This document shows positions 12,490 through 62,838 of a stretch of 64,000 nt of DNA, in pieces; position 1 is the first letter of the stretch; every line of letters begins with the position of its first letter. Source of the stretch: a phage; assembly GCA_032986305.1 (NCBI GenBank), contig GCA_032986305.1_3672.1; one strand, 5' to 3'. The notes under the pieces were generated by a model, which saw only the letters and a list, made by a program, of their open reading frames with translations, was not told the DNA's origin and did not search any database. A program made the position numbers and the translations under genes.

Positions 12490-13103
12490 TGGATATTATT
12501 GTTCTTAACGCCCCACCTAGCAGCGGCAAGGATCACATTGCAGATCTCTTGTTGGAAGCTATTCCTAACTCACACCACCGTGAGGTTAAGGAGATGCTCT
12601 TCAGTGTGGCAATTAAGGCAGCTGGTGTAACTCCTCAACTCTGGAATGCACTTTATGACCGCCACTACAAAGAAGAGCCTTGCCCTTTCTTAATGATAGA
12701 CGGCAAGCATGTTTCTCCGCGAGAGTGGATGATCCATTGTAGTGAAAATCTGATTAAACCTATCTTTGGTGAAGATGCTTTCGGTAAGGCCGCAGTCACA
12801 TCCTTGAAGAAAGATTTCCCTAAAGGTAAAGGGGTTGTTGTTTACTCCGATGGTGGATTCAAAGAGGAGCTGGCATGCCTTAGTGAGTACGCATACAGCA
12901 CAGGTGGAGATCTGTTGTTGTTCCGTATTCACCGTGTCGGATATGACTGGGGAAATGATTCCAGAACCTATCTAAGCCTGGAAAAGAACGGAATAAAAGG
13001 GATTGAGTTCGATGTTGTAAATCCTGAAGGTGCACCTTGGGAATGTGCATCGGAGATTGTGTGCAAGTATATTGATGCTAAAGAGGCCCAAGAAGAATGT
13101 TAA
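12486..13103 (+). CDS. P-loop kinase, dNMP-kinase-like (putative)
   Basis: NAPPSSGKD Walker A-like; ATGA overlap with upstream gene. Confidence 0.45.
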   Translation: MMDIIVLNAPPSSGKDHIADLLLEAIPNSHHREVKEMLFSVAIKAAGVTPQLWNALYDRHYKEEPCPFLMIDGKHVSPREWMIHCSENLIKPIFGEDAFGKAAVTSLKKDFPKGKGVVVYSDGGFKEELACLSEYAYSTGGDLLLFRIHRVGYDWGNDSRTYLSLEKNGIKGIEFDVVNPEGAPWECASEIVCKYIDAKEAQEEC

Positions 13104-13690
13104 TCGGAATTGATGTAGATTTGACACTGGTAGATTCAGGAACAGCATGGTGGGAGTGGTTGGAGCGTTTGTATGGTCCAGCCAGTAAGACAGTCGTTAA
13201 ACCTTCTAATGGGCTGATGTATTACGATCTGTCAAAGTATTGGCCTGATCGCCCCAAAGAAAACATCATAGGACCTTTTGATTTCTGGAGTGATCCGTTC
13301 CTCTACGACTTTCTTAAGCCTGAAGAGGGGGCTATTGAGGTTATGAAAGATTTGGTGGCTCGCGGTCACAAGCTCGCATTTATCTCGGTATGCAAGAAAG
13401 GTCACCTTGCATCTAAATCAAGGTTCTTAAAGCGCTGGACCAGTGATTTTATGGATCTGGATGATCACACCCAGGGTCACGGCTTCTACGCCACACATTT
13501 CAAAGGTAATGTGGCTGTAGATGTTATAATTGATGACAGGCATGAATACCTGAACCAATTCGCTTCACGACCTGAAGTTATTAAAATCCTAAAAGACACG
13601 CCTTATGAGCAATTCGAAGAGTTAAAGGTCAGTGTTGACTATACCGCTAATAGCTGGTATAAAATAGGAAAGTTTTTAGAAGGTATTTGA
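13097..13690 (+). CDS. HAD-family 5'-nucleotidase-like hydrolase (putative)
   Basis: N-terminal GIDVDLTL (DxDxT) and downstream IIDD. Confidence 0.45.
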   Translation: MLIGIDVDLTLVDSGTAWWEWLERLYGPASKTVVKPSNGLMYYDLSKYWPDRPKENIIGPFDFWSDPFLYDFLKPEEGAIEVMKDLVARGHKLAFISVCKKGHLASKSRFLKRWTSDFMDLDDHTQGHGFYATHFKGNVAVDVIIDDRHEYLNQFASRPEVIKILKDTPYEQFEELKVSVDYTANSWYKIGKFLEGI

Positions 13691-13691
13691 A

Positions 13692-13892
13692 ATGGGCAGA
13701 TGTTCTAAAGGTGGCGATCCTGTAGTCAGATACGGTGACTGGCTAGAGGTGTATGATCTGGGAGGTAAGCTGGTGTATGCCTCCAGGATCACCCAAGACA
13801 TGTGCTCCGATATGTTCAACAGATACCTTGCATTTAAGGCTAACATAAACCCAGACGAAATTTCCAAAATTAAAACAAGGAGAGCTAAATAA
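13692..13892 (+). CDS. hypothetical protein
   Basis: 66 aa ORF. Confidence 0.35.
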   Translation: MGRCSKGGDPVVRYGDWLEVYDLGGKLVYASRITQDMCSDMFNRYLAFKANINPDEISKIKTRRAK

Positions 13893-14875
13893 TGCTAAAA
13901 CTGTGCACTGCAAAGATCATTGCTGACAGCATTTCCGAGAAAGGTAAGCGTATCACCACTTTTGAGCTAGAGTATCCTCGAATTATTCACTCAGAGCTTA
14001 TGACACATCGAGTGTTCAGCCGAAACGCCATGTCTTCCCGTGCAGTGCCTGTAGGCAAGATGCTACAACAGATTGTGGAGAATCCGGCAATGCCAGTTCG
14101 CTTCGGTGTAAATAAGCGAGGGATGGAAGATGGTGGGAAGCACGATCAAAAGATCCGTGTAGAGTACACCGACATGGAGCTAACTCCTGAAGAGTTTTGG
14201 AAAGAAGCTGCAAAAAACGCCGCTTGGCATGCAGAGAAGTTCGCCCTTGCTGGTTACCATAAGCAAGTATGTAACCGCTTAGTGGAGCCGTTTCAGCGCA
14301 TGAAAACAGTTGTAACAAGCACAGAGTGGAATAATTTCTTCCATCTCCGTTGTTGGCACGATGCTGACCCTACTATTCAGATGTTGGCTAATTGCATGTG
14401 GGAGGCTCTTATGAATAGCACTCCTGAAATCCTTAAACCGGGTCAATGGCACACTCCATATGTAGAGCACGTTTATTTGGACGGAGAGTTTAACTACGCT
14501 GTACGTGACACAGAAGGAAAGCTCTGTATTCTCGATACTAAAGAAGCTCTGTCTATTAGTGCTAGTTGCTGTGCACAAGTATCTTATCGAAATATTGACA
14601 GCACGTTTGAAAAGGCAGATAGTGTGGCTAAAAAATTGATTGGTGGGGATCGTATTCATGCAAGCCCTTACGAGCACCAGGCAACACCTATGGATCACGA
14701 TAACGCAATGGAACGTTTAAACTACTATCTATCTTCATGTGAAATCACACAAGACAGCTGTGTTTGGCAGGAAGGTGTAACCCATCAAGACCGTGATGGT
14801 AAATTCTGGTCTGCCAACTTTTGTGGGTGGGTTCAGCACAGACAACTGCTTAATAACCACTTTGTGAAAGGTTAA
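13892..14875 (+). CDS. thyX: flavin-dependent thymidylate synthase ThyX (putative)
   Basis: SELMTHRVFSRNAMSSR resembles ThyX RHR-x7-S signature; RBS AAGGAG. Confidence 0.65.
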   Translation: MLKLCTAKIIADSISEKGKRITTFELEYPRIIHSELMTHRVFSRNAMSSRAVPVGKMLQQIVENPAMPVRFGVNKRGMEDGGKHDQKIRVEYTDMELTPEEFWKEAAKNAAWHAEKFALAGYHKQVCNRLVEPFQRMKTVVTSTEWNNFFHLRCWHDADPTIQMLANCMWEALMNSTPEILKPGQWHTPYVEHVYLDGEFNYAVRDTEGKLCILDTKEALSISASCCAQVSYRNIDSTFEKADSVAKKLIGGDRIHASPYEHQATPMDHDNAMERLNYYLSSCEITQDSCVWQEGVTHQDRDGKFWSANFCGWVQHRQLLNNHFVKG

Positions 14876-19397: not shown

Positions 19398-20254
19398 AAG
19401 TTGTAAAACGGGACGGTAGAGAAGAGGTCTATAACGGAATTAAGGTGATCAAGGCGGCAGAGTCCGCCTTACTTGAGTCTGGACATACTGAAGAAGAAGC
19501 TTACCGGATCGCCTGCGCGGTTAATGAAGTTGTTGCTAACAATCTACCAACCGACCAGTGCACGATCTCTGTAAAAAATATCCATATCCTTGTTGAAGAC
19601 GCTCTTATGGATATGGGTTTAAAATGTGCAGCCAGAGAATACATCCAGTATAGGCAGACAAGAGATAATAACAGAGAGGCAGGTGGAAAACTGCTTGCAG
19701 ATATTAGTGGCTTCTTGGATCGCACTTGTGATGAATTTACAAAAGAAAACGCAAATAAGCCTACCAATCATGTACACACTCATCGTGACCTGCTTGCAGG
19801 CATCCTTAGCAAACACCTTGCATCAACACAGATCCTGCCAGACCGTGTCTCAGAAGAGCACAATAAAGGCTTCATCCATGTGCATGATCTTGACTACTTG
19901 ATCAGTCCGTTAACAAACTGTTGTTTGGTAAATTATCCAGATATGTTGGAAAACGGATTCAACATTGGTAACGCCCATGTCAGTAAGCCGAAGTCAATAG
20001 GGGTTGCAACAACAATCCTTAGCCAAATTTCTAGTGCAGTAGCTAGTGCTCAGTATGGGGGTCAGACTATGAGCCATATTGATCATTATCTGGCACAGTA
20101 TGCTGAGGCGACCTATGAGAAGAATCTTAAATTTTGCCAGGAACACTGGTTGCCAGATGCTGAGACTGTTGCAATGCAAATGACAGATAAAGACGTATTT
20201 GACAGCATGCAGACTTTGCTCTATCAAATCAATACGTTAACCTCTGTCAACGGT
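19394..20254 (+). CDS. nrdD: anaerobic ribonucleotide reductase NrdD, exon 1
   Basis: GFIHVHDLDY...TNCCLV...GNAHVSKPKSIGVATT matches recalled T4 NrdD; ends ...NTLTSVNG then in-frame stop. Confidence 0.8.
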
Positions 20255-20811: not shown

Positions 20812-21573
20812 AAACTATAACTGCTCATGTAAAATCTATCTAAACGGGGAAACTCCAGAACGGACAATCCCGTGCTAAACGTAACAGAACTCCTGACCAA
20901 GAGGAGTCCTGAAATGAGAAAACAAATTCGTGATTTTGAAGGTTATGAAATTGACGAGATGGGCAATGTTTATTGCACCCGCTACGAAAATGAAAGAATT
21001 ATTCATTCGTGGGAAGAGATAAACACAGGTTACCGTCTTGTTAGGATACGCAAGAACAAAAAGACTGTTTGCCTAAGGGTTCACAGACTTGTTGCTGAAG
21101 CGTTCTTACCAAATCCAGACAATTTACCCTATGTTAAGCACAAAGGGGACAACAGGAAAGATAACAGTGTATACAACCTTGAGTGGGGAGCTTGCCCAGA
21201 CAATACGCAAGAAGGATACAACAACAACTGTTATGCTTTTTACACAAGATGCCACGGTGTGAAAGCCACCAACAAATTAACTGGTGAGGTTTTCCACTTT
21301 AAAAGTCTGAGATGTTGTGCTGATGTTTTAGGAGTGGATAGAAAAAGAATATCTGCTATCCTGAAACGTGGTGCGCCTAATAACTATGATTACGAGTTCT
21401 GTTACGAAATGCCTAACGACTAACCGTGATGAATGTAGCGGTGTAGGGTGTAAGCCGATGACACTCGAAATGGTAGACACACTAAGTGTGAAGATATAGT
21501 CTGATCTGCATGGGAACATGCAGCAGCACGTAAAGGTGCGGGGGTGGACTTGCGAACCACCCTGAACATAATG
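20812..21573 (+). mobile_element. group I-type intron 2 in nrdD carrying HNH endonuclease ORF (762 nt)
   Basis: Exon 2 ends ...TSMG (last nt U); exon 3 resumes CRSFLS; intron ends in G. Confidence 0.6.
20914..21423 (+). CDS. HNH homing endonuclease (intron-encoded)
   Basis: RBS AGGAG 7 nt before ATG; VHRLVAEAFLPNP...HKGDNRKDNSVYNLEW typical of phage HNH endonucleases. Confidence 0.7.
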   Translation: MRKQIRDFEGYEIDEMGNVYCTRYENERIIHSWEEINTGYRLVRIRKNKKTVCLRVHRLVAEAFLPNPDNLPYVKHKGDNRKDNSVYNLEWGACPDNTQEGYNNNCYAFYTRCHGVKATNKLTGEVFHFKSLRCCADVLGVDRKRISAILKRGAPNNYDYEFCYEMPND

Positions 21574-22536
21574 TGTAGAAGTTTCTTATCGAAATATAGC
21601 GACCCTGTAACAGGCGAGGAGAAATACCTTGGCAGATTTAACTTAGGCGTTGTTAGCCTTAACCTGCCAATGATTGCGGCAAAAGCCAAGACGGAAGGTG
21701 TTGATTTCTTTGCAGTTCTTGACGAATACTTGGATCTTGCATACGAGGCTCACCTTGTAAGGGTTAATCGTCTAAAAGGAACAAAGGCAGGGCAGAACCC
21801 CATCATGTGGTGTGAAGGCGCTCTTGCTCGCCTGGATCCTGAAGAGAGTGTTGATAAACTCTTCTATGACGGGTACGCTTCCATCAGTATTGGGTATATT
21901 GGTGTGTATGAAACCTGTCAGATTTTGGGTAGAGAGGGTGACAAGGCTTTAGCTCTTGGAATCCTTCAGCACATGAGAGATGCTTGTGAGCGATACAAGA
22001 AGGAAAGTAGACTAGCGTTTAGCTTGTACGGCACTCCTTCTGAGAGTCTATGCTATAAAGCTGCAACCTGTCTGGATCGTGAATATCCGGAAGTGTTGAA
22101 GCACGAGCATGAATATCTCACCAACAGTTTCCATCAGCCAGTATGGATAAATAGCTCTCCTTTTGATAAGTGGGAGTATGAGGAAGGTTTTGCTATGATC
22201 TCCTCTGGTGGCAACATCGGATACGTAGAAACACCTAACCTGAAAAACAACCTGGATGCTTTAGAGGCTCTTGTTGACTTCGGGTATAAACATATTATGT
22301 ACTTCGGTATAAACCAGCCTGTTGACCAATGCTTCAAGTGCGGTTTCCAGGGAGAATTTAAAGCCTCTCCAAGAGGTTTTATATGCCCTTGTTGTGGAAA
22401 CCATGAGGAGGGAACGATCAGTGTAATTAGACGTGTGTCTGGATACCTTTCCAGTCCTAACTCCCGTCCTTACAATAAAGGTAAGCAAGCGGAAGTTATA
22501 GAACGGGTTAAGCACTATGGAAGTTGTAGTTGCTGA
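21574..22536 (+). CDS. nrdD: NrdD exon 3 (glycyl-radical domain)
   Basis: C-terminal Zn site CPCCG and glycyl radical motif RRVSGYL. Confidence 0.8.
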   Translation, partial: CRSFLSKYSDPVTGEEKYLGRFNLGVVSLNLPMIAAKAKTEGVDFFAVLDEYLDLAYEAHLVRVNRLKGTKAGQNPIMWCEGALARLDPEESVDKLFYDGYASISIGYIGVYETCQILGREGDKALALGILQHMRDACERYKKESRLAFSLYGTPSESLCYKAATCLDREYPEVLKHEHEYLTNSFHQPVWINSSPFDKWEYEEGFAMISSGGNIGYVETPNLKNNLDALEALVDFGYKHIMYFGINQPVDQCFKCGFQGEFKASPRGFICPCCGNHEEGTISVIRRVSGYLSSPNSRPYNKGKQAEVIERVKHYGSCSC

Positions 22537-37499: not shown

Positions 37500-37805
37500 A
37501 TGGCTAAATCTAAAGTTGAACTGTTCACCTCTCTTCCTTCTGACACTGCAGAGCGTGATCGCCTTCGCAAGACAATCGAAGAACTGGTTGAACTCCAACT
37601 TCAGATTAAAGATCTGAAAGATGCCATTAAGGATATCATTCTCGTTGAGAAGCAGGATCATCTGTATTCTCCTAAATTCATCAAATCTCTGGTGGCTACC
37701 GAGTTCGATATTCGCTATGAGGCTGAAAAACGTCGAGCTAAAATCGAAGAAGAGGTTGAGCACATGTCTGAGGCAGACATTCTGTTCAAACGCTCTGTAG
37801 AATAA
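37500..37805 (+). CDS. hypothetical coiled-coil protein
   Basis: RBS AAGGAGA; charged heptad-like sequence. Confidence 0.45.
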   Translation: MAKSKVELFTSLPSDTAERDRLRKTIEELVELQLQIKDLKDAIKDIILVEKQDHLYSPKFIKSLVATEFDIRYEAEKRRAKIEEEVEHMSEADILFKRSVE

Positions 37806-38550: not shown

Positions 38551-38706
38551 TGCACGATTGCATACCTTGGACAGATAATCTCATTACAGAGCGTTTAAGA
38601 GCTTCCTGCAAACAACTCCATATTTCGAGCGTAGCGAGAACGCACGTCCGTTTTGACCAAAATCACCATACGCTCGGATTTTAACCAAACCCTCGCGGCG
38701 TTTATG

Positions 38707-38735
38707 TTGACACATTACCGCTCTCGTGATAGTAT
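38707..38735 (+). promoter_or_regulatory. sigma70-like promoter
   Basis: TTGACA - 17 nt - TAGTAT. Confidence 0.5.
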
Positions 38736-38853
38736 CCACACATAGTTTGTAGAATATGGAATACACAATGAAAACATTGTCCGAAGTTTTGGTAGTGATC
38801 CTGATGATCATTACGTCCATAGCAGCTGTTGCCGGAATACTCACGGGTGGAAC

Positions 38854-39066
38854 ATGATCAACACACATGTATCTGAAGAGACATCCAAAGGGGTGACCAT
38901 CTGTCACTTGGCTGAGCCAGTGCAAGAGGAAAACTTCGATTCTGAAGATTCTCCATCTTCGCTACAGGTAGATCCTGAGGCTGATGACCTGACGTGGGAG
39001 GACATCGTAGATATCTGGTTCTCTATTATGCCTGAGCACGAAGAGTTCAGGGGTGGTAGACTATGA
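38854..39066 (+). CDS. hypothetical acidic protein
   Basis: 70 aa; preferred over antisense ORF 38584..38925. Confidence 0.35.
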   Translation: MINTHVSEETSKGVTICHLAEPVQEENFDSEDSPSSLQVDPEADDLTWEDIVDIWFSIMPEHEEFRGGRL

Positions 39067-39187
39067 AGCACCGAGCCCACACAGGTTCCTCATGCTAAAG
39101 CATGGCCTGAAGAGGCAAACGTGCATAATTCCTGTGCATTGGAACGTATGAAACCCTGTTCACACTCTCATTTCCAGAGGAGATTTC

Positions 39188-39403
39188 ATGAAGATAGAAA
39201 TATTTGGTGGAGCTGACAACACTCGTGGCCTGATTTACCTTGAATTCGATGAATCATACCTGCCAGAGGTGTTAAATATAAACTCTGTTGCTGAGGCTTT
39301 GGGAGTAAACCCTAAAGAACTCCACTCTTGTGCTGAGATCGATGGTTGGGAAGAGACCATGAACATTGATTTCAGTGAAGTAGAGGATGAACCGCTGGAC
39401 TGA
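39188..39403 (+). CDS. hypothetical protein (MKIEI small paralog family)
   Basis: MKIEIFGGADNT..., RBS AGAGGAGA. Confidence 0.45.
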   Translation: MKIEIFGGADNTRGLIYLEFDESYLPEVLNINSVAEALGVNPKELHSCAEIDGWEETMNIDFSEVEDEPLD

Positions 39404-40985
39404 CACACAATTAGCTGCCCGGCTAAAGTGCTGGAAGCACCTATAACACATCTTTCAACTAAATTTCCCACCACCACAATCACTTACCTCCCACACATGA
39501 CTGTTTGCTTGTTTAGTGAGCAGTCATGCCTTGACATTCTTGCCTATCCTGATAAAATTAAGTTCTTCTCTTTTCTTTTACCGAGTAATTCGGGTTTTCT
39601 GTTCTCTTCGGTTTGAAGAGGTATGGAGATACACCTGAGTGAACAGGGTGAACAACCGAACCATTGGCTATGGCATTAGCATGGCGAAGCGGACGGGTGA
39701 CGAAAGAGGGGCCGGAGGACACCAGTCACTGCCATATGATATACGGGTGATAACCTGAAGAGTCTGAATAAGTGTTTAAGTACCAGTCAGAGGAAAAGGT
39801 GAATGGTAGCCGAAGGGGGAGGGGGGTTTCTTGTATCTTTAATTTGTATATTATGTATACACTTGTAAACCAATCTCATCTGAATCTGTTTACTACACAA
39901 AGCTGATAGGGACAAATATTACCTATTAAACTTGAATTATTTATAGAAAATACCACAACACAACTTAAGTCTTTGATTTTACACACAAATCCTGCAGATA
40001 TTCACCCTCCATATTTAACATACTTGTAACATATTCCATACTCTACCTACCTGATCAATTTACCCACCAACATCCTCCATATTTTCCCTGTCTGTACCAC
40101 CCCTGCCCCGCCGGGAGTCCCGTCATATCTGGCTTTCCAGCAAATATCACACCCACAAATATCATTGCCTGAAGAGGATTTCATCTCATAATACATGCCT
40201 TGCCTGAAGAGCGCTTCATACACCACGTAAATTTTTTAATTGACCCCCTCCCCGCCGCCGGAGAGGTTGGCTTTTCCCACACAGACCTGAAGAGTCAGCC
40301 AGAAATATCTGAATGGACCCAATTCTGCCCTGTTATGAGCCGTAGCTACTGGAGTGCTGCCAGGCGGACGAAATGGGAATACTTCTCATTCTTATAACAA
40401 TTCTCAAATATCAAGGCAGTGAGTCAAATTAATAGGCGAGGCCGTTCACACAGTGGCACAACATTTGCAACCTATCTTGTGGGGGTGAATGAGAATACCT
40501 ATCATTGTGAGAATAGTTATCATTACGGGCAATTTAACATAATACCCATTATGCGCACCACTGGCGATACATACAGGGATTGATAACATGAGTTACTGTT
40601 TACGCATATAACAATTATATTTCTTACTATTTGTGTGGGATATAGTTAGCAGCCAATAGATTAGATATTGACCTGTAGACTTCCAACCGTCTAGACGTCT
40701 AAACGCCCACACAGCAAGGGTTATACATACACTTCTGAATGTAAACAGGGCCGCAAAAATGCTACCATACCAGTTTGTAAATTTTTCATGCAGCACTTGA
40801 CAAAGAGGAGAAAAACTTGTCTGACACTTTAGACACAATAGTGACATACTATGACACCTTTGACACTTTTGCATACCTGATTGTTTGCATGTCTAATAGT
40901 TTACATGGATAACTGTTCACATACTTATCATTTACATGATTGACTGTTTACACAAATATGATAAGCCATGACATTCGTTTGCATG

Positions 40986-41045
40986 AAAACAATTAACAAG
41001 ATAACAATTGACAAGCTAACAGCCAACAAGCTGACAATTAACAGG
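40986..41045. repeat. four tandem 15-bp iteron-like direct repeats
   Basis: AACAATTAACAAG / ATAACAATTGACAAG / CTAACAGCCAACAAG / CTGACAATTAACAGG. Confidence 0.6.
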
Positions 41046-41056
41046 TTAATAATATA

Positions 41057-41229
41057 TGACATAATATAAAAGCAGGGCAACTATTAGCAGATCTATAGTT
41101 GCCTTGCTTGTTATGTCATGATTAACTAAATACAAGGCAACTATGATCTGATTAATAGTTTGCAGACAAACTATCACGGGGGTGATTGTTACTGCTTTTA
41201 TATTATGTCGCGACTCCGTCGCGACATGT
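41057..41229. repeat. nested inverted repeats (cruciform-capable locus)
   Basis: 19-bp arms TGACATAATATAAAAGCAG and CTGCTTTTATATTATGTCA; inner hairpin GGCAACTAT...ATAGTTGCC; 10-bp palindrome ATGTCGCGAC..GTCGCGACAT. Confidence 0.6.
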
Positions 41230-41854
41230 CATTCGTTTGCATAGTTGCCTTATTGTTACGGATAAAATAATTGTATTGTTAATTATTTCTTATCTTTCTC
41301 TTAGTCATCTAATGATTCCAGTCAGTATAGTAATGTACAGTAAACATTAGACGACTAAATATTTCTCTGATTATAGTAACCTATCGTGACAATTTCGGAC
41401 TGTTTACGAAAAATGTTGACACCTGGGCAGGTTTATGTTATGCAGTTTGTACGAATAATTATTTTATACAGGTATTGACTATTCCGTTATTCTGTGGTTG
41501 GAATAAATACTTTGCAGGCTATAGAATGATGTTCGTACGTGAATTCTGAGATCTGTCGGCTATAGTTACACCCGATTTTTCACGTAGGACACGCTTTTTG
41601 GTTTGTGTAAGTGTATGACTTATAAGGGTTTTTAATTGTTGACAGTATGCTGAAAATGTGCATCAGGTTAAATTTTGTGCAATAGCTGCATTACGTGCGT
41701 TTTTGGAAGGAAAAACGTGTAAAAATGACCCTGCTACCACAAGATGAAAGATTATGCAATAGTTATTTTATATGTATATTTGTACAGTGTGCGGGATTAA
41801 TGGCTCGTCAATTATTCCACTTGCCAGGTAGGGCCGTTTATGGTAGGAAAAGAG

Positions 41855-41895: not shown

Positions 41896-42243
41896 TTATT
41901 TGTTTCTCATCCAGCTTTCCCAAGCTGCCTGATAATCTGCCTCACTGCGGCGGATCTCTTCTTGCTCTTCAAGCCGGATCTCTTCTTCCAGGTACCCCAG
42001 GATATCAGCCTTTTTGGTCTGGCGTAACATCCAATCATCTTTTTTACGAGTAAAGATCTTGTACGCTTTCTCGCAAACCTCCTTTTTACTACCTTTTTGG
42101 ACTTCAATAACTTTGTAGGCCATGTACTGAACTAGTTTGAGCTGATCAAGGCGTTTCATGATGTTTTCCTCTTTATGGGGTTCTGGTTTGGTGGGCCTTT
42201 TGGCCCGTGTCATTATCTTATTACTTACGGCGGCAAAATTCAA
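41896..42243 (-). CDS. hypothetical protein
   Basis: 115 aa, basic/charged. Confidence 0.45.
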   Translation of the reverse strand: MNFAAVSNKIMTRAKRPTKPEPHKEENIMKRLDQLKLVQYMAYKVIEVQKGSKKEVCEKAYKIFTRKKDDWMLRQTKKADILGYLEEEIRLEEQEEIRRSEADYQAAWESWMRNK

Positions 42244-59784: not shown

Positions 59785-60138
59785 TTAGTGACAATCACCC
59801 CAGTTACGACCACACAAGTATTCACCTGTGATCTGGAACGGGACTCCCATCATTTTAGAAGCTTGCCAGAAGCAATGCACCACCATTTCACCCACAGGGC
59901 TCCAGATAAGTTCAAGCTTTCCGTCATCGTTCAGGATAGGATCGTACACCGTGTTTCCGTCTCTGTCAACCACCTCGTTTCCGTTTTCATCCTTGCGTGC
60001 CTTTTTGTACTTATGACCGTCGAACACATGAAGTTTGGCTTCCTGCTCTGCCTTAAATGCTTCCAGTTCTTCAATTGTGTCGAAGGTGTACACAGTCTTA
60101 TACTTAGGTGTGTCAGGGACCTGAAGTTGGTACTCATC
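59785..60138 (-). CDS. DNA polymerase (family A, T7 gp5-like), exon 2
   Basis: Begins at motif C (H)DEYQLQV; ends ...GRNWGDCH resembling recalled T7 gp5 C-terminus GPNWAICH. Confidence 0.6.
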   Translation of the reverse strand, partial: DEYQLQVPDTPKYKTVYTFDTIEELEAFKAEQEAKLHVFDGHKYKKARKDENGNEVVDRDGNTVYDPILNDDGKLELIWSPVGEMVVHCFWQASKMMGVPFQITGEYLCGRNWGDCH

Positions 60139-60414
60139 CAATAGTTCAGGTAGGTCGTTAAGCTACCCCGCACCATTACGTGCATAGCCATACGTTTTCA
60201 CGTAGGATCGGACCATCTCATATTCCTATGATAAGCAACCACAGGAATCCTCCCATTTCGACCGCACTTGCTGGTCTACTTCCTTTCGGAATGGCCTCTG
60301 AGCGTTCGCTCTTTTGAGCGCTTCGTTGCGGATTACCTTGCCATAAGGTTTAGGCTTCCCGCAGTTAAAGAGGTTATTCGACATAGATTACTCTATGAAG
60401 CCACAATGTTATTT
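60139..60414 (-). mobile_element. group I-type intron in DNA polymerase gene (ORF-less, about 276 nt)
   Basis: Separates ...IIYYH from DEYQLQV at motif C; exon 1 ends in U, intron ends in G. Confidence 0.5.
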
Positions 60415-62838
60415 ATGGTAATAAATAATACGACGAACACCTTCATCGTACCACCCACGCTTCACCATTTGGTGGTGCATGAGTATCCCAACTAAGTCAC
60501 ACAGCGATGCACCACCATTCTGTTGGTATGCATTAAGTAAAGAGTGTTTAGATCGGGTCCAGATGGCATGACCATCAAAAGAGTAGATAAACTTCTTACC
60601 CGTTGCTTCCCAGAATTTCTCCAGATCCTCTTTACGCCCCTTAAGACCAGGGTTGGCATCCCAAAGTGCATCGATTACCCTTTGTCCCAACTCTGGAGAG
60701 ATGTCCAGCATATCTGCAACTTTATCTTTTTGTGCCCCGTACATAACCCCATACGTGATAGGTTTACCGTCGTTACGGGACACCTCTCTGCCTGCTACTT
60801 TTGTATATGCCTCAGCATTGTTTTGGTGTGCGTCTCCGTTACTTACAACATCGTAATACAGGCCGTTGTCGAACTCAAAGGCACCCCAAGCCCCGATAAG
60901 CTGCTCTAAGTTGGACCCGTCGATACCGATCTCAAAGTATCCTGGAGGAACACCCCACAAGCTACGCATCTCTTTACCCATAACCACTTTAGGAGAGGGT
61001 TTAGGCATGTTTGCACAAATACTGTGTTTCTGTCTGGAAGTGTTTGTTAATCCAGAGCTTTTAGCAGGAAGCTTATGGTCAATCTTCAAGCGTGGGTGAT
61101 TAAGAAGACCAGTATCAACCTTATCCTCCTTGATCGGATCAAGGACCGATCTGCGGTTTCGCAATGATAACCACAAGACGATATCTTTAGCCATCTCTCC
61201 GTTCAATTTTTCAAGATTCGGACATAGGTGTCCAAACGTATCTTTCAGTTGCGGAGAAGTAATAAGTGCCCTAGCTTTTCTACGTATTTTCCTGAATACT
61301 TCCTTTTTAATCCTTTCGGAGTTAGGAAAGCTTCGGAACTTGTGCACAGTTGTCTGGAACTTAGCATCAGTTTTGTTCCAGAAGTTGATAATTAGGTCAC
61401 AATACTCTGACTCCAAAAGCTCGTCCATATATGCATATACTCGTGCATCAACATCTGCATCAGGTAAAGCTTTCTTCTTGCTGTCTTTAGTTACATCCTT
61501 AGTTCTCCACATTGTCGGAAGCCAGCCAGCACTGATCAGGTATCGCTTAATGTCGTCCTGGTTGCTGATTTTCATAGGTATCTTGCAGTCCGGCATTCGC
61601 TTCTGCTGTAGATCACTTATTGCCTGATCCATCAACTCTTTAGGTAAAGGGTGTGGTGTGGAAGTGCCCTTAATATAGCCTCTCAAGAAATCAGCCATCT
61701 TATCGGGGTCTTTGCATCCCATCTCTTCACACCATTTTATCCCCATCTTGCTGACATCTCCTGTAGAGGTAAATGCTCTCTTAGGCGGGGCTTTGAACTC
61801 TAAAGCGCTCATGTCTACAGGATATCCAAGCTTATCTTTTAACCATTTCCAACCATTATTAGAGATTGTCCCGTCTTGGTTAAACGGCTTTTCAGGGAAC
61901 TTGGGCCGCTGAGACATTGACAGCTCTTTTAAAGGCAGTTGTGGTTCAACACGATCAGCGATTTCTTTCATCCACGCATCGCAACGGTCACGTAAAGCAA
62001 TAGCTCCATCTATGTCGAAATATACGCCCTGACGGGCCTGCAGCTCCATCAGGAAGTGCTGCAGCATACCTCGGCGCAATGCGTTCTTCCAGGTGATCTT
62101 CTTGAACCCTTTTGGCTTCTCTTTGGCAGGATCGTACATAAAGTTCTGCATGTCAGATTTGCCGTAGAATACACCTTTTGATTCCGCTACCAGCTCTTTC
62201 CAGAGCAACTCCTGGATGATAACGTCCTCGAATACACGATCCACATACTTCCACAACGGAAGATCGCGCCAGTCATCAATTTGAACTTTCTGGTTACCAA
62301 GGGCGTAGCCCCATGCCATAAGGCCGTGAGGACCAACAGGCTGCATTTTCTTAGTAACCGGGTTGAATACAGCGTCCGGACAACCTTTTGGTAAAGGGCG
62401 ATCAGGCCACAAGATTCGGCTCATCGCCAACGTATCAAACAGGTTAACCTGGTGGTCGTTGATAGTCCCCATACATTTAGGATCACGGAACATATCAAAA
62501 TGAATACCGGATAATCTCTCCATCAGCATAAAGTCATAACTATAGCAGTTATGGCAGTTCAAAGCTGTTGGTGACCAGTCGGAATTGCCTGTAAGCCAAC
62601 CTTCCAACTCCGAAAAATCTGCTATGCGAACTTCAAAATCTTTATAAAGAGCTTTCTTTGCCAGAATAAAGTTCTTAGCCTTCTCTATATCCTCCTCGGA
62701 GTAGTGTGTGCGGTCATTTAGAGGGAGGAACAGCATAAAACGGTTCTTATTCAGCTCTTTAAACAGGCCGCAGTGATAATAAAGATCTGGGTCTTCCAAA
62801 AGCCCGGAGGCCTCAAAATCGAAGCTATACATGCTCAT
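60415..62838 (-). CDS. DNA polymerase (family A, T7 gp5-like), exon 1
   Basis: N-terminal exo FDFEASGLLEDPDLYYHCG like T7 VSDIEANALLESVTKFHCG; motif A GIDGSNLEQL; motif B RNDGKPITYGVMYG. Confidence 0.8.

Follow-up and report, generated by a model that had tools for sequence, protein, structure and literature searches.

What is the role of a nine-letter motif that occurs five times, always in the same orientation, in a part of a phage genome to which no gene has been assigned? The motif, CCTGAAGAG, lies between positions 39106 and 40294 of a 64,000-nucleotide stretch of phage DNA (contig GCA_032986305.1_3672.1 of GenBank assembly GCA_032986305.1), hereafter called the window. The window belongs to a Vequintavirus, an rV5-like myophage of E. 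coli: 122 phage records match positions 38700-41000 with 90-99% identity over most of the length, nearly all of them Escherichia Vequintavirus, including rV5, JES2013, FV3, and Murica. All matching records share a gap of ~2.5 kb without consistent gene annotation, where the relatives carry either nothing or tiny open reading frames (ORFs) that disagree between records. Transcription converges on the gap, the + strand genes stopping at 39403 and the - strand genes at 41896. Phages of this type are widely isolated and are included in typing sets and therapy cocktails, and the gap has been unexplained since the rV5 genome paper, in which the interval is drawn as a grey "non-coding" box without assigned function (PMC3606486).

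The five copies form a cluster with a non-random distribution, which is conserved among relatives, lies next to the direct terminal repeat (DTR) of the genome and recurs in a divergent clade. We tentatively favor the view that they may be cis-acting DNA sites that bind a protein and have a role in packaging or in processing of the genome ends. Short repeat arrays beside DTRs and pac-type sites are already known; for this subfamily we found no description, as far as our search went, and nothing in the results contradicts current understanding. With the DTR inside the gap, the motif array, the apparently inverted DTR edges and a strong unannotated promoter with a putative invariant transcript become candidate cis-acting packaging signals. 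Such signals allow genome records to be begun at their true ends and can be used to make transducing particles or contained phages, as has been done for T7 with Pac. They also bear on how large myoviruses generate short exact terminal repeats, and the parallel with the heptamer arrays of T7 would offer a second system for asking what such arrays do.

The nonamer array and the terminal repeat

The five copies claimed in an earlier note on this DNA, which was made from the sequence alone, are exact matches on the + strand in non-coding DNA, at positions 0-8 nt away from those given there (Table 1). A longer form, said to occur three times, was found only twice (TTGCCTGAAGAG at 40165 and 40200); the copy beginning at 39103 reads TGGCCTGAAGAG. 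The whole window contains eight copies of CCTGAAGAG against 0.54 expected, a number reached in none of 100 dinucleotide shuffles, and no copy is present on the - strand. The other three (13319, 14186, and 21838, all +) lie in the ORFs 13097..13690, 13892..14875, and 21544..22536 (+) and are read in frame as CCT-GAA-GAG, or Pro-Glu-Glu; they are therefore ordinary coding occurrences. For genome-wide counts, a complete relative with defined ends, Gotham (137,025 bp), was assembled. It has eight copies on the + strand and one on the - strand, compared with 0.6-2.6 expected per strand under Markov orders 1-5, and five of the nine are inside the final 1.2 kb ahead of the right DTR. Only four 9-mers of Gotham have at least four copies inside 1.3 kb, and CCTGAAGAG is at the top with five, tied with AGCTTTTTC. 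A chance-level frequency, which the earlier note had named as the result that would speak against the motif, was thus found in neither sequence.

Table 1. Coordinates of the features of the gap in the window.
Feature	Position	Strand	Remarks
Nonamer copy 1	39106..39114	+	inside palindrome GCCTGAAGAGGC (39105-39116)
Promoter-like site, sigma-70 type	39531..39558	+	TTGACA, 16 nt, TG-n-TAAAAT; 11/12 matches; points to DTR
Purine-rich segment, 266 nt	39565..39830	+	almost invariant; ends in GGGGGAGGGGGG (39815-39826)
Nonamer copy 2	39754..39762	+	within the almost invariant purine-rich segment
AT-rich spacer	39830..39990		73% A+T; less conserved; between G-rich and C-rich segments
Repeat unit A	40097..40176	+	CCCCTGCCCCGCCGGGAG ... 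GGCTTTCC ... CACACCCACA ... CCTGAAGAG; holds GC-rich block 40106-40122
Nonamer copy 3	40168..40176	+	3' end of repeat unit A
Nonamer copy 4	40203..40211	+	35-nt local duplicate of copy 3 tail; least conserved
Repeat unit B	40240..40294	+	CCCCCTCCCCGCCGCCGGAGAGG ... GGCTTTTCC CACACAGA CCTGAAGAG; holds GC-rich block 40250-40266
Nonamer copy 5	40286..40294	+	3' end of repeat unit B
Left DTR edge site	40355..40365	+	TGCTGCCA^GGC; identical in the divergent Septuagintavirus-like clade
DTR, 459 bp	40363..40821		by homology to Gotham and EdH4 termini, 95% identity
Right DTR edge	40816..40826		CTTGTC^TGACA; bottom strand TGTCA^GACAAG
(T)GACAY repeats, five	40822..40866	+	abut right DTR edge; phased 9, 11, 10, 9 bp; two without leading T

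Successive copies are separated by 648, 414, 35, and 83 nt. Copy 1 is situated in a 121-nt spacer between the small ORFs 38854..39066 and 39188..39403. Copies 3-5 belong to a C-rich, G-poor stretch (~39990-40300; G 14%, C 33%), which also holds repeat units A and B and is followed by a variable stretch between unit B and the left DTR edge. Each unit has a CCCC(T)GCCCCGCCGG-type block at its start and the nonamer at its end, and the paired GC-rich blocks previously noticed here are indeed present, one in each unit. In most relatives unit B starts with CCCCCTGCCCCGCCGGAG, nearer to unit A than it does in this window. Upstream, CCCACACAG is common to copies 1 and 5; downstream, GAGTC...TCTGAAT is common to copies 2 and 5. 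Judged from the letters, the nonamers are the best-preserved cores of what would be older direct repeats of ~45-80 nt.

The genome end is placed by comparison with relatives. Gotham is annotated with a repeat_region at 1-459 and at 136567-137025, the two copies being identical, and the termini of EdH4 overlap exactly over 459 bp, which map to the same segment of the window. The query aligns twice with the records of several relatives, which come to an end ~400 bp past it. The 459-bp repeats of Gotham have been described as having the same start sequence in all virions (PMC7471380), and the terminal repeat of EdH4 has been given as 458 bp (PMC6563267). KPP-1, a more distant member of the subfamily, has a 514-bp DTR, at 116,316-116,829 of MT438396, and is classed by PhageTerm as having T7-type packaging (PMC9862379). 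The DTR of phage Jab measures 475 bp. In the window, the left DTR edge follows copies 3, 4, and 5 at distances of 195, 160, and 77 nt, respectively.

The two edges of the DTR resemble each other. The left edge reads TGCCA^GGC on the top strand and the right edge TGTCA^GAC on the bottom strand (TGCTA^GAC in UPEC06, see below), giving the consensus TGYYA^GRC; the right edge looks like an inverted, transition-related copy of the left. We estimate the chance of such a resemblance at roughly 0.001-0.01, a figure that presumes that the reported termini are exact to the base. Inverted edge sites suggest nicking on opposite strands; they are what a mechanism of staggered nicks, with the repeat then copied by strand displacement, would need. 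Among relatives the (T)GACAY motif next to the right edge is kept, while its copy number (about 3-7) and spacers vary, and the Septuagintavirus-like clade has TAGCAAA repeats in the place of (T)GACAY. As a separate observation, the record of Shigella phage CM1 (MK962749, L013) contains the DTR start twice, at 2632 and 3155, 523 nt apart, in the order DTR, TGACA array (64 nt), DTR; the duplication is either real or an artefact of assembling the terminal repeat.

Conservation was examined in an alignment of 14 Vequintavirus sequences with a mean column identity of 93%. Of the 45 nonamer columns, 42 are invariant, compared with 71% of the other columns (binomial P = 2e-4), and when five 9-nt blocks were drawn at random from this non-coding DNA, 2.3% of the draws reached that figure (block permutation P = 0.023). 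Copy 1 has eight and copy 2 nine invariant columns out of nine. At copy 3 the prefix TTG varies in relatives (TCACCT, TTTCCT), and the nonamer itself is invariant. The exact nonamer of copy 4 has been lost by one point change in FV3 (CCCGAAGAG) and in UViG_2051223002 (CCTGAAGAT). Indels of 33-70 nt on either side of copy 5, towards copy 4 and towards the DTR, leave the copies untouched. The distance from copy 5 to the DTR edge ranges over 77-127 nt across relatives. Copy 1 of one metagenomic relative is interrupted by a 46-nt insertion, which is bordered by AAGAG and regenerates the nonamer. An absence of conservation among relatives, the other result named beforehand as adverse, was thus not seen.

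The insertions are of interest in their own right. Hairpin-rich segments of 33-70 nt are found in relatives at fixed spots (39115, 40245-40250, and 40330-40355; loci L009, L003, L013, L015, and L017) and have short direct repeats at their borders, AAGAG for those at copy 1 and GACCTACAGGAG for those ahead of the DTR. They look like small modules, either mobile or produced by recombination.

The motif recurs beside the terminus in a Septuagintavirus-like clade, of which UPEC06, A7_1, A73, and LTH01 were compared. The gap of these four genomes has no BLAST similarity to this window; the 87-aa gene to the right of the gap is recognizable in UPEC06 and A7_1 by tblastn (59-61% identity to a 115-aa query, 67% over the 87-aa alignment). 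The two ends of the UPEC06 record are identical over 462 bp; in the orientation of the window this repeat starts ...CTGCTGCCA^GGCACGG and ends ...TTTTGTC^TAGC, so that the edges TGCTGCCA^GGC and TTGTC^T are common to both clades. Within 460 nt upstream of its left edge, UPEC06 has five GCCT-N3-GAG motifs in the same orientation, namely GCCTAAAGAG, GCCTACTGAG, GCCTATCGAG (twice), and GGCCTGAAGAG (the nearest, at -129), and there is no further one on either strand of 6.7 kb. Across the four genomes TTTGCCTAAAGAG...GGCCTACTGAG is invariant in surrounding DNA that is rich in indels. The copy nearest to the DTR is GCCTGAAGAG, which in LTH01 is GCCTAAAGAG: GCCT and GAG are kept and the middle is changed, suggesting that the functional unit is better described as (G/A)CCT-N3-GAG.

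Wider searches returned little. A pattern scan for nonamer pairs in viral contigs gave matches that looked unrelated; the lengths of many are divisible by 3, as would be expected of coding Pro-Glu-Glu repeats. A metagenome scan for the nonamer together with the edge site gave 97 matches, one of them related; the others have no similarity to either clade and are presumably due to chance. A search of IMG/VR with the flanking proteins found 2-3 Vequintavirus contigs only, and the genera 4MG, KB57, CR3, and TH18, reached through the conserved gene 37500..37805, have a different synteny with no terminus near that gene. "Campylobacter phage A116" was considered as a divergent comparator and dropped, being a scaffold with Ns joined to unrelated DNA. 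In this record (MG065676, UNVERIFIED) the N run at 2994-2999 joins unrelated DNA to the Vequintavirus terminus region. Many other "Campylobacter phage" records that match these E. coli phages are likewise UNVERIFIED and look like contaminants or mislabelled assemblies.

Candidate sites for packaging and end processing

If the array serves the genome end, the nonamers in the replicative concatemer would be recognized by a phage protein, for which the small terminase subunit or an accessory factor of end processing is the most plausible candidate. The bound protein would place a nuclease at the edge sites, TGCTGCCA^GGC on the left and its inverted relative CTTGTC^TGACA on the right, and cutting and packaging of unit genomes with duplicated terminal repeats would follow. 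The proposal parallels the pacB/pacC sites and the SRR/SRL heptamer arrays of the T7 concatemer junction. In T7 the small terminase gp18 recognizes PacB and the large subunit gp19 cuts at PacC (PMC9860248). We checked the T7 sequence directly: the heptamer CCTAAAG is present in one orientation, with eight exact copies at 175-338 beside the 160-bp repeat, three inside the repeat, and two exact and further degenerate copies on the other side (~39630-39706), roughly 72-150 nt ahead of the repeat. The promoter phiOR at 39229 points at the junction from 550 nt upstream.

The two systems agree in several respects. In both, a short motif in one orientation and with irregular spacing is placed in unique non-coding DNA adjoining an exact terminal repeat; copies lie ~72-150 nt from the repeat edge in T7 and 77-195 nt from it here; and an upstream promoter is directed towards the junction (phiOR in T7, the sigma-70 site at 39531 here). 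CCTAAAG also resembles CCTGAAG-AG of this phage and GCCTAAAGAG of the Septuagintavirus-like clade, although this may be coincidence. On the other hand, the phages are unrelated, T7 being a podovirus and this one a 137-kb myovirus. T7 has its own RNA polymerase and a CJ pause, and the polymerase paused at the junction helps to start maturation (PMC3276506), whereas this phage has host-type promoters only (PMC3606486).

Other packaging sites offer a similar comparison. The pac site of P1 contains the hexamers TGATCA/G in groups of four and three copies, and cosB of lambda contains the R sites. Like these and like pacB and pacC of T7 and T3, the present array consists of several short asymmetric motifs within a few hundred bp of the cut. 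It is unlike them in that the distance of the nearest copy to the cut varies among relatives and that two copies are much further from the cut than in known pac or cos sites.

Several points weigh against a role at the genome end. The position of the DTR in this phage is given by homology (95%) to Gotham and EdH4. Copies 1 and 2 lie 0.6-1.3 kb from the DTR edge, and the irregular spacing of the copies, with the variable distance from the last one to the edge, argues against a rigid nucleoprotein geometry. The right flank of the DTR carries (T)GACAY and not the nonamer, and CCT-N3-GAG is absent from the DTR (40363-40821) and from the DNA to its right; in T7 the heptamer is present on both sides of the repeat and inside it. 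To our knowledge, the function of the SRL/SRR arrays of T7 has itself not been established. The conservation tests are limited in power, the genomes being 90-95% identical, as the block permutation reflects. Because the relaxed motif was defined after A7_1 had been seen, its P values are partly post hoc and indicative only; this reservation does not extend to the exact nonamer, which recurs beside the DTR in DNA that cannot be aligned.

A more ambitious form of the packaging proposal would treat the whole 1.3-kb right-end segment as a single, so far undescribed signal of the Vequintavirinae for packaging and DTR duplication, made up of a host promoter, a terminase-loading array and inverted nick sites. 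The promoter at 39531, read by host polymerase, would drive an invariant G-rich transcript to the junction; the GCCT-N3-GAG array would load terminase; and the two inverted TGYYA^GRC sites, 459 bp apart, would receive nicks in opposite strands, from which the repeat is duplicated by strand-displacement synthesis. We regard this extension as rather unlikely as a whole. If true, it would be a sigma-70-dependent counterpart of the transcription-coupled processing of the T7 junction, in a large myovirus without a polymerase of its own.

Alternative roles of the array

The region is also remarkable for what lies ahead of copies 3-5. The promoter-like site at 39531 is kept in 13 of 14 relatives and is missing from Table S4 of the rV5 genome paper, which lists no promoter between P162 and P164. 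It is followed by a weak terminator-like hairpin (39581-39593). Promoter and purine-rich segment together are the most conserved part of the region, with ~97% invariant columns by count from the alignment, exceeding the neighboring genes; no convincing ORF was found in the purine-rich segment. The purine-rich stretch reported earlier at 39600-39830 proved to be 63% purine, with 34% G and 16% C.

These features could be read as a replication origin, in which the G-rich transcript from 39531, running to GGGGGAGGGGGG, would serve as an R-loop primer in the manner of ColE1 or of T4 ori(uvsY)/ori(34), and the nonamers would be initiator or accessory sites. The 11/12 promoter, the nearly invariant 266-nt segment (G 34%, C 16%) with copy 2 inside it, the run of 12 G and the 73% A+T stretch that follows would all fit, as would iteron-like repeats nearby, to the right of the DTR. 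A change in GC/AT skew within the interval, noted by the rV5 authors, would fit as well, but they ascribe it to the switch of transcription direction (PMC3606486), and convergent transcription accounts for it. Iterons, as in lambda ori, P1 oriR and plasmid origins, are likewise co-oriented direct repeats in non-coding DNA with an AT-rich stretch near (39830-39990 here); they are usually regular tandems of 17-22 bp, in contrast to the 9-12 bp at 35-648-nt spacing in this array, and better candidates for them are situated to the right of the DTR (40877-41053). No initiator gene was identified among the flanking ORFs, and in the divergent clade the motif array is not preceded by a counterpart of the promoter or of the purine-rich unit. 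We consider an origin an unlikely role for the nonamers.

Control of transcription into the genome end, with the nonamers as operators for a phage or host regulator or as parts of promoters, also seems improbable. In its favor, every copy points the same way as + strand transcription, copy 1 precedes the ATG at 39188 by 82 nt, and CATAAT follows copies 1 and 3 after 9-10 nt, TTGCCT-16 nt-CATAAT at 40165-40192 scoring 9/12 as a promoter. In the alignment, however, it is the nonamer that is conserved and not the -35-like TTG prefix. Copies 2, 4, and 5 lack a good -10 element, copies 2-5 have no downstream gene, and the motif is absent from the other intergenic regions of the genome.

The array might instead be a neutral residue, left by repeated duplication of a ~50-80-nt segment in dispensable DNA, with the nonamer as the part that has not yet diverged. 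The copies do lie within longer repeats (units A and B, the 35-nt duplicate, and the shared CCCACACAG and TCTGAAT flanks), and the region is a hot spot for indels in relatives that are only 5-10% diverged. Against this, the nonamer columns are more conserved than the flanks of their own repeats, and motif, orientation and position recur in a clade that is otherwise unalignable, where N3 varies and GCCT and GAG are kept. We consider neutral persistence distinctly unlikely. The suggestion of the earlier note that the motif is a repeated regulatory or processing site holds in the general sense of a conserved, orientation-specific DNA motif; the context of the DTR was missing from it.

An RNA element, with the copies as processing sites or small hairpins (e.g., GCCU-GAAG-AGGC) in a non-coding transcript, is very improbable. 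It would agree with the location of all copies on the + strand, downstream of the promoters at 38707 and 39531, and 4-5-bp GCCU/AGGC hairpins can be drawn at several copies, here and in UPEC06 and A7_1. Only copy 1, however, is a full palindrome among the copies in the window; no compensatory changes were seen, and three changes in unit A of rV5 break candidate pairs. The fold of 39564-39850 is no better than that of shuffles (z = -0.84). Searched against Rfam at E <= 10, the gap gave two meaningless hits and no family match; at gathering score, a group I intron outside the gap was the only match of the whole window. Two specific RNA ideas were rejected. CUGAAGA fits the hammerhead core CUGANGA, but the context of stem II, GAAA and stem III is lacking and Rfam has no match. 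Long-range pairing of GGGGGAGGGGGG (39815) with ACCCCCTCCCC (40243) shows no covariation, because the C-run varies (CCCTCCCC or CCCTGCCCC) and the G-run is invariant.

Decayed tandem copies of a small protein-coding gene, which the earlier note had also proposed, are scarcely credible: CCT-GAA-GAG does encode Pro-Glu-Glu in three real genes of the window, and copies 3 and 4 read LPEE(D/R)FI, but the copies are in different frames, stops follow 4-8 codons after copy 3, indels of 1-2 nt and 33-70 nt separate close relatives, and none of the 121-122 related records has an intact homologous, paralogous gene.

Individual ORFs in the array fare no better. The ORF 40200..40397, which starts at one of the copies, exists as described (TTG start, 65 aa) and is not credible as a gene, since it crosses the DTR edge and a stretch with 33-50-nt indels in relatives. 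The - strand ORF 40047..40226, annotated in some records, was rejected: several relatives have lost its start or shifted its frame, and most of its substitutions are non-synonymous. A neighboring - strand ORF, gp065, is labelled "structural protein" in APCEc02.

Other features of the gap and the window

To the right of the DTR, positions 40877-41300 are densely filled with repeats: GTTTRCA occurs six times, a 15-bp unit is repeated four times in tandem (40989-41053), and GGCAACTAT/ATAGTTGCC form inverted pairs. In the same zone, 41058-41075 and 41192-41209 are perfect inverted repeats of each other (18 nt), and 41204-41228 can form a strong hairpin. These repeats look like iterons or operators, and the zone could be a replication origin.

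Several public records give the 87-aa gene beside the gap (41899-42159, -) the label "DNA translocase FtsK". Pfam does not match it to FtsK at all and offers unrelated families only, weakly and below threshold, and PHROGs places the gene among those of unknown function; the label appears to be a propagated annotation error. The idea that GGGNAGGG-like motifs at 39816 (+) and at 40101 and 40246 (-) are KOPS sites for FtsK was dropped in view of the Pfam result.

Far from the gap, the window has a 276-nt insertion relative to Gotham at 60139-60414 (-), where positions 19995|19996 of Gotham are contiguous, inside the homolog of F10B_0011 (925 aa, hypothetical). An Rfam match to a group I intron at 60189-60424 (64.7 bits, E = 4e-14) coincides with it, so that this phage has an intron that is absent from this close relative. 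The F10B_0011 homolog is accordingly split in the window into the ORFs 60409..62838 and 59785..60141.

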